Origin: a virus
Length of the DNA stretch: 64,000 nt
Virus record (IMG/VR): IMGVR_UViG_3300037520_000900
Span: 16,277-80,276 of that record
Strand: one strand, 5' to 3'
Part shown: positions 9,916 through 61,672 of the stretch, piece by piece
Layout of the letters: each line of letters begins with the position of its first letter
Numbering within the stretch: the first letter of the stretch is position 1
The notes under the pieces: generated by a model
What the model saw: the letters and a program-made list of their open reading frames with translations, nothing else
What the model was told of the DNA's origin: nothing
Database searches by the model: none
Program-made: the position numbers and the translations under genes

Positions 9916-12900
9916 TTAAACGTCATCAAAAGATGCACCTGTTGGTGTTATAACAAACTCGATATCAATATATTCTAACGCTCTTGTTGGTTTCAAATAA
10001 ATTTTACCTGTTAAAGTGTTTGAATCTAAATCTTCAGGAGTGTTTGAAACTGTAACTCTAAAGTCAATTAAACCTCTATCTCTTCTAATTGAATCCAAAA
10101 TTGGGTTCACTGAATCTAAGAAGTCTTGTCTAACTTTATCGTCGTTTTGTTCAAATAGTAATCTTACTGCAACTGCTGAAATTAATTTTCTTGCTTGTAA
10201 TAATAATCTTCTTACATTGATTCTGTCAAGTGCAGACTCTCTAACTTGTAATGTTTTATTACCCCAAATTACAGTTCCAACATCAGAGAAAGTGGCGATT
10301 GGGTTCAATCTTCCTTTATATAAAGTATCTCTATCATCTTGGGTCAGTTTTCTTCTTGCTTTAATCGCGTTTACAATACCACGAGTGTAACCTGCCGAAG
10401 CAAACCAAGGAAATGCAATATTGTCAGTTAATGCCAAGTTTTTAGTTACCTCTGCAGTTGGTGGTAAATAAAGTTGTGTATTATTAACTGAGTCTCTTGT
10501 TAATACCCACGGGTAATAAGTTGCGGTATAATTAGAATCAATTCCAGTATCTTCTAAGTTATCCACTGCCTGTTGTGGGTATATTAAACCTTCTTCTAAA
10601 TCATTGTATGTTGGTAAGAATAAATCAAAATCAGGAGTTGTACAAATATAAACTGAATCCGCTCTGTCTGTTTCAACCATATCTATCGCCAACTCAACAA
10701 GATTTGAATTATTAACATAATCAATACCAGGTGTTGTAAATACGTTAATGTTAACCGCTTCAGGGTTTGCGAAAGTTTGTTGACCCCATAAATAAGCGTA
10801 GTAGTCAGTATTTGCCCAAGTCTCTTGGTTAGGTCCTGAAATTTGTTTGAAAGCTCCCCATCCTGTAGCAGTTGGGTATGTTATTGATGCTTCCGCACCT
10901 GCTTTGTAACCTGCTTGACCTAATGCGAAAGTATCCTCATTTGTTCTATATTCTCTATATATGTCCCATCCATCAAAACCACCATAAGCAAAAACAGTAA
11001 ATTTACGTGTATTCAAACGGAAGTATGGGTTATTACTATCATTTGGTTCACTATTAAATGACCCAACACCAACTTCAAATGCTGCTGTTTGACCTGAAGT
11101 TAAAGTGTTATATTGTGTAATAACTGTTGCTCCACTATCCATGTGAAAACCTTTAGTGGTATAACCCCAATCAATACCTTCAGTATCGGTACCTAAATTT
11201 ATAGGAACTCGTTTTCCTTTATATTCAAAGAAATCATAATCAATTCCTGTAATATTAGAAATTCCTAAGTATGCTCTTCTTGGGTTTTCACCGTTTGAAA
11301 TAACTGGGTTATCTCCACCGTTAGATGATCCAAAAGGAGGGTTATAAATCAATTCACCTGGTTGTAAATATTTAGTTTTATAAACCATAAATGGTGGTGT
11401 TGCGTTTGAGTATTCTCTCATGTTGTAACCCTCAAAACCACAAGGAAGCGCATCTACAGGAGCCTCATCGCTCATGTCTAACATGATATATTTTGATTTA
11501 ACTTGATACTCGCCGTTAGATGTACCAATTTTATTTGCCACATAATTATTCTGATTTGGATCTAACGAACAATTAGTGAAACTTTCTATAACTCTAACAT
11601 TTTGATCAGTATCAAAGAAATCTCTAACAAATAAATCAAATGTTGAGTTATTGAATGACATGTTTGCTACCGATATTTTAACTAACCTGTTTGCCGCATT
11701 ACCATCAGAAATTAATTTAGCCTTAAATAATTTATAAACTTTATTACCTCTTAGTTCAGAAACAAAATACGGAGTTTCTGGTGTTTGGAATTGCTCAAGA
11801 TAAAATGCGATTGATCCTGTATCATTTTGTCTTACACCACCTAAATCAATCCAATCACTATAAAGTCCTCTAATTTTACCTTGTCTATAACCTGTTGTTA
11901 AAAGTGCAGGGTAAGCCTCCTCAACAAATAAAGGAACTTCCGTTCTATCTTTTCCAAAATTACTTCTACCAAATACCTTAGAAATATATTTTGAATCTGT
12001 TGTTAACATAGATGTTTCAAAACTAAAGTTATCTCCGTCTTGAGTCACACCAGAAACTAAGAACGTATCAAAAGGATCTCTGGTTACTCCAACATAATCT
12101 CCTGAAGTAATTAATATTGTATCTGTTTTAGCTGATACTTCATATCTAGGTCCGTCCTGTGTTGATGAGTAAGTTGAAATACCTCTTGATCTTAATGTTG
12201 CAACAACTAAATCATCAAATTCTAAATAAGGCGTTCCTGAATATTGTGTAAACATAATATTACAAGAACCAGAATAAGAACCTGCGGTTGCTCCCGTACT
12301 TATAGCATCTAAACTAATACCAAAACCAAATCCAAAATATGATGATGCATCTGTTGATGGGTTTTGTGAATATGCGAATTGAGAATAAAACCAAGGATCG
12401 TTAGTTGATGATGATAATGTGTTATTTGCAACATCTATACTACTAACCCCATAAGTCTCAGTTACTGAAGTAATGGTATTAACAGGTGTTGACGTTCCCG
12501 TAATGTAAGTAATAACTCCACCACTTACACTACCCCAAAATTGAGCTGATGTGCCTGATGATGGATTTGCAGTTGAAAACAAAGTTATTTCGTTTGATAA
12601 ATACGCTTGAATATCACTATTAATTGTTGATGTTGAGTTATCATAGTTAGTGTATGTTGCATTTATAACTGTTGATAAAATAGCTGGAATATTAATTAAT
12701 GATATTGATGACGGATTACCAGTTAACCCTGTAAATTGAAAGGTTGATGTAGTATTACCCGTAGCACCAATTGTTGACGGATCAACATTACCCATCGTTG
12801 TAATTGACCAAGAAGGTCCTGCGTCGTAACCTGACAAACCAAGTACTCTTGTTACGAACAATTGATTTGATTGTTGTAAATACGCCTTAGCAATATAAGA

Positions 12901-59848: not shown

Positions 59849-61672
59849 TTATCTCAATTCTTGTAAGTCGAATGTTCTAACTCCATCAACTGTGATTCTA
59901 CCATAGAAACGGTTGTTAACCATTTTCTTAGCGTATCTCGTCATGATACCTTTGATAGGTGTAAAGTTGAATGGGTTATACATTGTAGGTGTTAATTGTA
60001 GAGGTACATACGGAGCGTAAACGTATCCTGTGTCTAACAAAGACGAACCTTTGTGTCCGATAAGGATTTGGTTAGCTGGGAAGTATGGATCTCTATACAC
60101 TTGGTAACGACCTGCCAATGTACCAACTCTTTCGATACCCATGTTGTACTGATCTTGCTCCGGAGAAGCGTTAGATACGTGGAAGTACTCAAGGTCATCA
60201 AAGATTGCAGAAACTTCAGAAGAAACAACGATCCAGTTAGCTCCACCTCTCAATGTAGATTTGTGGATTTGTGCTGACAATTGGTTAATTGCTGTAATCA
60301 AAGTTTGATTCCAATCTTTTTGAGTGTATGATGTTGTTTGAGAAATTCTTCTCCATCCGTTGTAATCCCATCTTAGGTTCCAAGCCGCTCCTTTTCTAAG
60401 GTCTCTCAAGATTTCTCTATCGATTTCAGCCGCCACTTGCTCAGACAATAAAGCTGTTAATTCAGCCTCAGCGTCGATGTTATGGAATGCTGAAACGTCT
60501 TGTGCTAATTCAGGTGACCATTGTGCTCTTAGTTTTCTTTCTGTAACTGATACAGTAACTGACTCAAGGTCAAAAGAAACTTCACCAATTTTATCTTCAA
60601 ATTCTAATTCAGCGTATCTTTTAAATACCGCAGTAAATGATGTTCCAGAAGGAATTGCAGTTACAGTTGCTCCTGTATAACCATCTAAAGATGTAGCGTT
60701 ACAGTCAGCACATACCGGACAAGATAAATCAACTTCTAAGTAAATACATCCATCAACTGAACATACACTTTCGTAAGAACCACCATTTCCACCAGGGAAT
60801 TCAGTTCTAACTACATTATAATTAGGATTAACAATCGCTTTACCGTATTGTTGAGTAACTACTCTAAACAATAATGGTGTAGCAGAAGGAACAGTACATG
60901 GTGAACTTCCACCAATAGTTAAACCATCAGATTTAATGATTTTTAAATCAGAAAGGAAAGATTCTGTATCCATTTCAGATCCATCAGGACCAATTAATTT
61001 ACCAGTACCCACTTGGTTAAATCCACACATTTTTAATAATACTTTTCTAACACCTGTTGTAGATGCTGTATAAGTAGCACTGTTATTAGATGGAATTAGA
61101 GTACCGTTAGACCACTCTAAAACAGTTGTAGGTGAAGTAACCGCAGTAAATGTACCTTTTGAATAATCGAATAATCCTGGAGGGTTTAATCCTGCTTCAG
61201 CACCTTCATAAAATAAATCATAAAGATTTTTAGCGTATTCGTTACCATCATCATAACCTGATGCCGTAGTACTATCTGAACCTGGAGCTCCGATTGGTGC
61301 AAAATGCGTGTTAGGGTTAGCTGCGTCGCCATTATATCCTTGGATTTTAGGTACAAAGTAGAACAATTTACCGATTGGTAAGTTCATAGCTTGTACAGAT
61401 ACTAAATCATTAGCCAACAATTTAGAGAAAACTCTTCTAACGATAGGAAATACTACAGTTTCAAATGAACCTGAACTATCAGTAGATGCCGCTTCGTTAA
61501 TTAGGTGAGACGCTTGGTTTTCATATAACTGTGCCATGTTCTCTTTGATGTGTCCTTTAAGACCGTCTAGGAATCCTAATCTATCCCATTTGTTAATTGT
61601 ATCTTCTTTGATAACTTTCAAGTGCTTAAGACCGATGTTACCTACAAGACCTGATTCTAATAATGCTCCCAT
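59849..61672 (-). CDS. gp23: Major capsid protein (T4 gp23-like)
   Basis: PIVRRVF…VQAMNLP-GKLFY…RKLRAQWSPELAQD…DAEAEL…EIDREI…YAPYVPL…TRY. Confidence 0.97.
   Translation of the reverse strand: MGALLESGLVGNIGLKHLKVIKEDTINKWDRLGFLDGLKGHIKENMAQLYENQASHLINEAASTDSSGSFETVVFPIVRRVFSKLLANDLVSVQAMNLPIGKLFYFVPKIQGYNGDAANPNTHFAPIGAPGSDSTTASGYDDGNEYAKNLYDLFYEGAEAGLNPPGLFDYSKGTFTAVTSPTTVLEWSNGTLIPSNNSATYTASTTGVRKVLLKMCGFNQVGTGKLIGPDGSEMDTESFLSDLKIIKSDGLTIGGSSPCTVPSATPLLFRVVTQQYGKAIVNPNYNVVRTEFPGGNGGSYESVCSVDGCIYLEVDLSCPVCADCNATSLDGYTGATVTAIPSGTSFTAVFKRYAELEFEDKIGEVSFDLESVTVSVTERKLRAQWSPELAQDVSAFHNIDAEAELTALLSEQVAAEIDREILRDLRKGAAWNLRWDYNGWRRISQTTSYTQKDWNQTLITAINQLSAQIHKSTLRGGANWIVVSSEVSAIFDDLEYFHVSNASPEQDQYNMGIERVGTLAGRYQVYRDPYFPANQILIGHKGSSLLDTGYVYAPYVPLQLTPTMYNPFNFTPIKGIMTRYAKKMVNNRFYGRITVDGVRTFDLQELR

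Follow-up and report, generated by a model that had tools for sequence, protein, structure and literature searches.

A four-residue word, [ST][GA]xT, is concentrated in candidate virion proteins of a jumbo-phage lineage and may signal virion glycosylation

To our knowledge, virion glycosylation among tailed phages is established only for mycobacteriophages, for which we know of no acceptor motif. Freeman and colleagues reportedly described in 2023 virion O-glycosylation in mycobacteriophages of the Che8 type, with glycans on the C-terminal tails of capsid and tail-tube subunits. The chlorovirus PBCV-1, whose host is an alga, encodes its own GMD, soluble multi-domain glycosyltransferases (GTs) and methyltransferases, and its capsid glycans are N-linked to Asn in a non-canonical short sequence, in the cytoplasm. 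In Clostridioides difficile, the soluble transferase SgtA, whose gene adjoins that of its surface-protein substrate, attaches O-GlcNAc to the Thr of Gly-Pro-Thr repeats in BclA3, Ser being accepted too (PMC7157674). Finally, the moraphages have genomes of 200-307 kb, predicted Bacteroidota hosts, and four core GT groups together with PhoH and dUTPase (PMC12619734). Searching the literature, we found no acceptor motif described for phage virion glycosylation. Here we analyze a stretch of 64,000 nucleotides (hereafter the window), bases 16277-80276 of an 80,276-base IMG/VR contig from an uncultured jumbo phage (IMGVR_UViG_3300037520_000900; CheckV completeness 27%), in which the word [ST][GA]xT recurs across candidate virion proteins encoded next to a GT operon. 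An earlier note on this DNA had read the word as a phage-specific O-glycosylation acceptor giving the particle a glycan coat. The enrichment of the word, its placement on virion candidates and its co-variation with GT genes support this idea, whereas the sugar genes turn out to be variable and the chemistry is proposed.

The enrichment of the word on the virion candidates is real and goes beyond chance. With expected counts calculated from each protein's own composition, the 16 virion candidates contain 65 copies against 21.1 expected (P 1.6e-14), and 42 against 18.2 (P 1.3e-6) when the two richest proteins are set aside; the remaining ORFs of the window contain 7 against 7.1. All motif counts of the earlier note were reproduced (14 in the long fibre, 9 in 29203..31131, 7 in the sheath, 3 in the capsid, etc.), and the enrichment holds after correction for Ser, Thr, Gly and Ala content and for local composition. 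Upon block shuffling within 10, 15 or 30 residues, 42 observed copies stand against 20-21 (standard deviation 4.4, z 4.6-5.0) and none of 1000 shuffles matches them, so local richness in Ser, Thr and Gly is not the cause. A composition artefact is therefore rejected, the enrichment remaining against global shuffles, local shuffles of 10-30 residues and the per-protein expectation alike. Permuted words of equal composition reach only 1.2-1.9x. Post-hoc picking of the motif can also be discarded, since in an unbiased scan of the window [ST][AG]xT ranks first among 882,000 patterns of the shape [ab][cd]x[e], and it comes first of all shapes in two more genomes. Codons at the motif are diverse, with both Ser codon families in use, which locates the signal in the protein and leads us to reject a DNA-level one.

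The claim that the word is nearly absent from cytoplasmic proteins stands in part. The 966-aa polymerase indeed has none, and the other ORFs hold 7 in all, but 7 against 7.1 is chance level and not depletion. Across orthologue families, ratios are near zero for the tube-like ORF 8166, the GT 33774, the dUTPase and 18553 (ORFs are named here by their first coordinate), and about 1.5x for the polymerase. Such family zeros are phylogenetically correlated and whole-genome remainders lie at expectation (114/118 and 77/78 in the relatives described below), so depletion of the word in cytoplasmic proteins was rejected.

The word is sharply defined. When 28 enriched ORFs from three genomes are pooled, SG, SA, TG and TA preceding xT are each enriched 3.6-6.5x. 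Exchanging the Thr of position 4 for Ser, Val or Asn brings the ratio to 1.3x, 1.25x and 0.47x, respectively; Ser, Pro, Asn or Asp in place of Gly/Ala at position 2 give 0.8-1.1x, and Asn, Asp, Ala or Val in place of Ser/Thr at position 1 give 0.6-0.9x. Aliphatic residues are preferred at position -1 (Leu 2.6x, Val 1.8x, Ile 1.6x), and Ile, Tyr and Phe are enriched directly after the motif Thr. The word differs from the Bacteroidota O-glycosylation motif D-[ST]-[AILVMT], and [D][GA]xT stands at 0.63x. It is also lineage-specific, not needed for folding and mostly found in loops, as the following comparisons show.

The richest carrier is a Cys-rich virion-type protein (29203..31131, minus strand, 642 aa) with a predicted ConA/LamG-like jelly-roll fold, which has 9 motifs against 0.85 expected. 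Its family comprises 848 clusters at 50% identity by profile search. In 76 orthologues we counted 930 motifs against 118 expected (7.9-9.4x), with a family median density of 1.55 motifs per 100 residues, and more distant members are enriched 8-10x. The individual sites are mobile: 51 closer orthologues have 47 distinct sites between them, of which 4 are near-fixed, 14 intermediate and 29 rare, whereas control words occupy 14-35 sites, nearly all of them rare and 0-5 intermediate, and the motifs number 12.5 per sequence versus 0.6-3.8 for control words. Substitutions at a site remain within the motif class, as in TGYT/SGYT or TAVT/TGIT/SAVT/TGFT. This pattern looks like the turnover of sequons.

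In several similarity groups, about 11 full-length homologues in all contain just 0-3 motifs and carry residues rich in D/E/K/N at the nine positions that are motif sites in the window's protein, charged residues making up 19.1% of motif-rich versus 25.5% of motif-poor members (p 8e-7). The word is therefore not required for folding. An AF2 model of 29203 (83 sequences; pLDDT 86.3, pTM 0.87) shows domain-level matches, with low TM scores, to ConA/LamG-like lectins, two 'virion structural proteins' of S-PM2, a cyanopodophage tailspike and the receptor-binding domains of clostridial neurotoxins. LamG_3 is the lead from the Atlas, and a PDB sequence search gave no usable match. Mapped on the model, 73-78% of 105 motif sites collected over 83 homologues lie in coil, versus 63% for the whole model, and few lie in helices. 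The earlier note had expected exposed loops, which agrees with this coil preference and with the charged or polar residues at the same sites in motif-poor homologues; we infer from the model that the sites are exposed.

The fibre-like proteins are the next conspicuous carriers. The long one (25421..29179, minus strand, 1252 aa, with TATTTAT 17 nt upstream) has 14 motifs, all within residues 35-314, against 2-3 under global and local shuffles, and a family ratio of 4-6x. Eight of them, in residues 35-89, follow a 5-residue register, [ST][GA]xT then a hydrophobic residue. Residues ~330-1200 consist of Asn-rich repeats with a period of ~10 residues (NxIGxxFxxN type), presumably a beta-solenoid fibre shaft; Pfam and PHROG give no match to the protein, this region included. 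Two short fibre-like paralogues (23377..24066 and 24122..24583, minus strand), for which Pfam and PHROG likewise give no match, have 4 and 2 motifs, and their first 29 residues are 86% identical, VSGQT included. Near the head genes, three plus-strand ORFs are enriched: 53239..54795 (3 motifs against 0.54 expected, family 5.6x), 54817..56271 (3 against 0.67, family 4.3x), which TATTTAT precedes, and the 56-aa 56284..56454 (2 against 0.27, family 7.0x).

Capsid and sheath, the proteins with the clearest identity, also carry the word. The major capsid protein, of T4 gp23 type (59849..61672, minus strand, 607 aa; phrog_138 at 3.3e-67), has TAVT, TAST and TGAT at residues 176, 202 and 333. In 78 orthologues the word occurs 327 times against 85 expected (3.8x), and two sites are near-fixed, residue 176 in 59 and residue 333 in 63 of 73 sequences. 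The tail sheath (9916..13131, minus strand, 1071 aa; phrog_23 at 1.1e-53, the match spanning residues 855-1068; TATTTAT precedes it) has 7 motifs at residues 124-679, all outside the PHROG sheath core (791-1068), in agreement with the placement in non-core segments proposed before. Its family of 74 orthologues has 651 against 220 expected (3.0x), with high-occupancy sites at residues 124-360 and 666-680. The ORF beside it (13425..14465, minus strand, 346 aa), called gp15-like in the earlier note, matches no Pfam or PHROG family; it has a single motif here, and 80 against 21.5 expected (3.7x) in 72 orthologues. The tube-like ORF 8166..8654 contains none in 49 orthologues. In a 2131-aa protein that occupies positions 1-4935 of the window (minus strand) and extends upstream in the contig (G000:C1:14816-21211), we observed a PTPTPTPTP linker running directly into SASTATTAVT, which consists of three overlapping motifs.

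As counts over orthologue families are phylogenetically correlated, whole genomes were scored as well. The window has a GC content of ~30%, a DNA-level search against the phage collection gave zero matches, and most of its large ORFs other than capsid and sheath are without a family. Capsid and sheath each have at least about 600 IMG/VR matches, and relatives near completeness span 272-321 kb. The nearest isolate is Flavobacterium phage vB_FspM_immuto_3-5A (hereafter immuto), with 40.6% capsid identity, which makes a Bacteroidota host plausible for the window phage. Three relatives were used as whole genomes, G003 (321 kb, complete), G006 (318 kb) and G005 (245 kb, 69% complete).

In G003, whose 33774-type GT is 69% identical to that of the window, the word is the top one of the whole proteome over all six shapes scanned (188 against 78, P 1e-25). 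The signal is confined to 14 ORFs (P<0.01), the other 325 having 114 against 118. G006 (GT 53%, capsid 60% identical) gives the same picture, with the word again on top (230 against 105) and the rest at 77 against 78. The G003 scan excluded mucin-like giant ORFs, which had swamped a first unbiased scan. These ORFs (672-2305 aa; G003:C1 41305-55642, 142747-152630 and 311616-315590) contain from tens to over 100 T-[PQK]-T units each, forming mucin-like Thr/Pro/Gln tracts that separate folded domains. Wherever the flank is covered, a motif-rich 29203 homologue has a 33774-type GT gene no more than a few kb away, even in relatives only 29-47% identical to the query used.

G005, a relative at a comparable distance (capsid 53% identical), keeps synteny around its 29203 homologue, with homologues of 31940, 32373, 32663, dUTPase, 47115 and 48051, but a profile search of the whole record, which is 69% complete, found no 33774-type gene, nor was a 37756-type two-domain GT-A found, which is present in G001, G002, G003 and G006. 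The slot of 33774 is filled in G005 by a 345-aa ORF (L320:5085-6122, minus strand) with weak GT4/GT1 matches and no detectable similarity to 33774, which looks like a transferase swap at a fixed position. Here the word is at chance, with 83 against 69 overall and zero ORFs at P<0.01. Observed over expected counts are 1/1.13 for the capsid, 2/1.4 for the sheath, 1/0.4 for the 29203 homologue and 0/0.34 for that of 54817, whose G006 orthologue has 7 against 0.84. The equal motif density in a GT-lacking relative that the earlier note held would speak against its idea is thus not seen. An alternative sequon in G005 was considered and rejected, as no Ser/Thr word stands out. Since G005 keeps homologues of 48051 and 49121 (32-34% identity), along with four GT2 matches, and shows no enrichment, the word tracks 33774 and 37756 specifically.

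Outside this lineage, a T4-like structural module has 17 against 19 expected (0.89x; capsid 1/0.71), by which we reject the idea that the word is a general property of myovirus structural proteins, and the corresponding module of immuto, which has no 33774-type GT, has 47 against 32 (1.47x; capsid 1/1.16). The word is therefore co-distributed with the 33774 and 37756 genes.

Both genes belong to an operon of 27 tightly packed plus-strand ORFs (31162..50682, ORFs 31183 to 50682), divergent from the fibre genes and headed by TATTTAT at 31162, which by Pfam and NCBIfam contains GT, sugar, nucleotide and PhoH genes. A hydropathy scan found zero multi-pass membrane proteins in it, and its head TATTTAT is the same as that before the capsid, sheath and fibre genes; both traits fit the glycosylation proposal set out below. 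The GT-B-type gene 33774..34985 (plus strand, 403 aa), 2.6 kb from 29203..31131, is a core gene of the lineage, 64-90% identical in relatives. It matches Glyco_trans_1_4 at E 0.0098 (16.6 bits versus a cut-off of 27) and HpsO at E 0.013, and its JGI name, a COG-type label, is 'glycosyltransferase involved in cell wall biosynthesis', with at least 7994 protein clusters. The two-domain GT-A gene 37756..39261 (plus strand, 501 aa) matches PF13712 at 4.7e-22 and PF00535 at 1.1e-12; for neither protein did a PDB sequence search give a usable match. Two more genes are conserved in the lineage, a GT-B-like one (48051..49118, plus strand) and a GT-A one (49121..49933, plus strand), and this pair has a PDB match to 8xsg, a putative glycosyltransferase (1.6e-8). 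The earlier note had counted about eight GT-like genes; family matches could be found for only these four, two of them below the Pfam cut-off.

The same note had listed sugar-synthesis and methylation genes, and these are indeed there, in a variable plus-strand block (40103..46396) that is mostly without orthologue in G003: a GMD paralogue (40103), a sugar C-methyltransferase (42970), two FkbM methyltransferases (44187 and 44822) and GMD (45425). Between the GMD paralogue and the C-methyltransferase sit two adjacent plus-strand genes, 41116-42051 and 42048-42956, paralogous to each other (29% identity, E 1.5e-20) and without Pfam or NCBIfam family. The supposed tie of this block to the motif did not hold, since its GMD and methyltransferases are variable and missing from three of the four GT-positive relatives searched. 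GMD was found in G003 and not in G001, G002 or G006, so that the 6-deoxyhexose and methylation genes are accessories, and we reject GMD as a member of the core system. The operon further encodes a methyltransferase, a PolB-exonuclease-like protein, dUTPase and PhoH.

We propose that [ST]-[GA]-x-T, usually with an aliphatic residue at -1, is an acceptor or recognition word at the protein level that would signal sugar attachment on the virion, a reading that we hold to be the best of those considered and, judging from sequence, evenly poised between right and wrong. The word would be written into exposed virion parts, namely 29203, the fibre-like proteins, 53239, 54817 and 56284, and more weakly into outer sheath domains and the capsid. 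Late in infection, soluble phage GTs from the 31183-50682 operon would O-glycosylate Ser or Thr of the word in the cytoplasm, with the core GT-B 33774, the two-domain GT-A 37756 or both as the likeliest initiators. The glycan would next be lengthened by the other transferases and tailored by the variable GMD and the C- and O-methyltransferases, giving a clade-wide coat whose composition may differ among relatives. We infer that the modification is a sugar, and likewise which residue bears it and which enzyme adds it. In its widest form, the proposal is that an abundant clade of aquatic jumbo phages coats the whole particle (receptor-binding proteins, fibres, sheath and capsid) by cytoplasmic sequon-directed O-glycosylation, with a phage GT-B reading [ST][GA]xT and with swappable tailoring genes. 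This we hold more tentatively, as falling somewhat short of an even chance.

Several points weigh against sugar attachment at the word, which is itself a proposal. The enrichment of capsid and sheath is weak in single genomes, with 3/1.1 and 7/3.0 here and 2/1.06 and 5/2.2 in G006. The protein encoded beside the capsid gene (57710..59746, minus strand, 678 aa; CUB 2.3e-10, GEVED 2.8e-13, and weak F5/8 type C), which the earlier note had presented as a motif-bearing spike, does have the two copies counted there, but 2.7 are expected and, although Thr-rich (14%), it is not enriched. The matches that place 33774 in a GT family are below threshold. This gene is flanked by an exonuclease-like gene and dUTPase, and a thymidylate synthase (TS)-family gene is found in all four GT-positive genomes searched, so that DNA is a possible acceptor. 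Moreover, the eight long-fibre motifs in 5-residue array resemble pentapeptide repeats; in immuto, which lacks the GT, a mild enrichment is seen in one fibre (10/4.0) and in one structural protein (5/1.35); and the GT-motif link opposes one clade to outgroups, which is a single phylogenetic contrast, with G005 only 69% complete.

The last three of these points would suit a different explanation, that the word is a structural habit of the clade, a strand-turn-strand unit (aliphatic-S/T-G/A-x-T-aliphatic) that drifted or was selected, e.g. for uncharged hydroxyl-rich surfaces, and whose link with the GT reflects shared ancestry. The aliphatic residues at -1 and the Ile, Tyr and Phe after the Thr would fit such a unit, as would the exactness of the register in residues 35-89 of a fibre that otherwise is a repeat solenoid. 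So would the sheath, where many orthologous sites alternate Thr and Ser at position 4 and the number of distinct sites equals that of control words. However, a second motif at a spacing of 5 or 10 residues exists for only 12 of 72 motifs (21 of 256 in G003), and isolated motifs number 53 against 21, so that a pentapeptide or fibre repeat is rejected as the whole explanation and the 'fibre repeats only' alternative raised in the earlier note falls with it. Furthermore, full-length 29203 homologues fold without the word and with charged residues in its place, sites come and go between close relatives while their number per protein stays high, the same word occurs in unrelated folds (capsid, sheath, LamG-like protein and fibres), and T4-like structural proteins show no enrichment. 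We thus regard a structural habit as unlikely, if by no means far-fetched.

A further alternative is that the GT island serves another acceptor, either the envelope glycans of the host or phage DNA, whose hydroxymethyl bases would be glycosylated as they are by the GT-B glucosyltransferases of T4, the word being unrelated to the island. In its favour, 33774 is flanked in all relatives by exonuclease-like and dUTPase/dCTP-deaminase-like genes, and the TS-family gene of G001, G002, G003 and G006 (288-320 bits, in extended ORFs of 360-431 aa, e.g. G003:C1:240252-241328) was not found in G005, of which 69% is covered. G005 keeps at least five GT-like genes and has no enriched Ser/Thr word, so GTs of these phages need not act on virions, and the moraphage study puts DNA glucosylation first among the possible roles of its four core GT groups (PMC12619734). 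However, another acceptor leaves the strongest word of three proteomes unexplained, and the operon has no membrane enzyme, flippase or priming enzyme for work on host glycans. The TS-family scores in our judgement fit a true thymidylate synthase better than a hydroxymethylase, and we know of no methylated 6-deoxyhexose tailoring genes in DNA glycosylation. Both considerations speak against DNA, and we judge this alternative improbable. Finally, the word might serve a post-translational process other than glycosylation: it could be phosphorylated, modified by another transferase or recognized by an assembly factor. The location of the word in loops and the hydroxyl residues that begin and end it would suit this as well, and the sequence itself is silent on sugar. 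However, Pfam and NCBIfam showed neither a kinase nor any other protein-modifying enzyme in the operon, and the genes that track the word are glycosyltransferases, which makes such a target very improbable indeed.

If glycosylation at the word is the right reading, tailed phages would have in [ST][GA]xT their first defined acceptor sequon of virion glycosylation, and phage glycan coats would become predictable from sequence in very common freshwater and marine phages. Peptides of the types SGxT and TGxT could be paired with 33774 or 37756 as candidate acceptors and enzymes, and there would be an account of why big aquatic phages lacking export machinery have large, fast-changing sugar islands. 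With receptor-binding proteins and capsids coated in sugar, adsorption and stability would be affected, as would the way in which host defences or grazers recognize the particle.

Two further features of this lineage deserve mention. TATTTAT, present in 63 copies in the window, precedes 17 genes by 7-51 nt on their coding strand, including capsid, sheath, tube-like, fibre, 54817 and the head of the glycan operon (sites at 4956, 7169, 8693, 13175, 14992, 15596, 15644, 17421, 18530, 29196, 31149, 31162, 50683, 54797, 57707, 61723 and 63321), and looks like a promoter word. The site at 50683 directly follows the last ORF of the operon (49933-50682, plus strand), a weak sigma-70/ECF-type match (TIGR02937, E 0.0028) that may be a phage late sigma factor. 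In another relative, L288 (IMGVR_UViG_3300040786_000030, 193 kb), homologues of the polymerase, the GT and 18553 are split into many short ORFs under table 11, which could reflect a different genetic code, many frameshifts or poor assembly.

Compared with the known systems, the window phage shares with PBCV-1 a virus-encoded GMD, a multi-domain GT and methyltransferases, but PBCV-1 glycans are N-linked and its host is a eukaryote, and GMD is accessory in the window lineage. Pentapeptide-repeat beta-helices have the consensus [STAV][DN][LF][STR][G], and the word with its flanks can be laid over positions i to i+5 of it, with Thr replacing Asp/Asn, residues 35-89 of the long fibre keeping the register; even with E values of up to 1 allowed, Pfam gives no pentapeptide-repeat match for the long fibre or the other carriers. 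With the mycobacteriophage type, the window phage shares soluble GTs of its own encoded near structural genes, and capsid and tail proteins as proposed acceptors. However, host phylum, phage lineage and enzymes differ, and a four-residue word marks the candidate sites, which are internal and spread over many proteins. They do not lie in C-terminal extensions: the capsid motifs are at residues 176, 202 and 333 of 607, and the tube-like ORF 8166..8654 has none. As far as their description allows, moraphages and the 'LPS' glycan islands of large aquatic T4-like phages are alike in their size class of 200-320 kb, predicted Bacteroidota hosts, and core GTs with PhoH and dUTPase; the moraphage study reports no acceptor motif (PMC12619734).

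The behaviour of the word is that of a sequon in that it is short and enriched over composition in the proposed acceptor proteins only, in the window as in G003 and G006. These three GT-positive genomes are enriched and G005, immuto and the T4-like phage, all without the GT, are not, which amounts to one phylogenetic contrast. The nearest biochemical precedent for such an acceptor is that of SgtA and BclA3, which has the same [GA]-x-T core and a GT gene near the substrate gene. However, the SgtA acceptor is a collagen-like triplet array, and no Gly-x-Thr triplet arrays occur here, where the motifs stand isolated or in 5-residue register. The word of the window phage needs a leading Ser or Thr and is mostly found singly, in the loops of globular domains.

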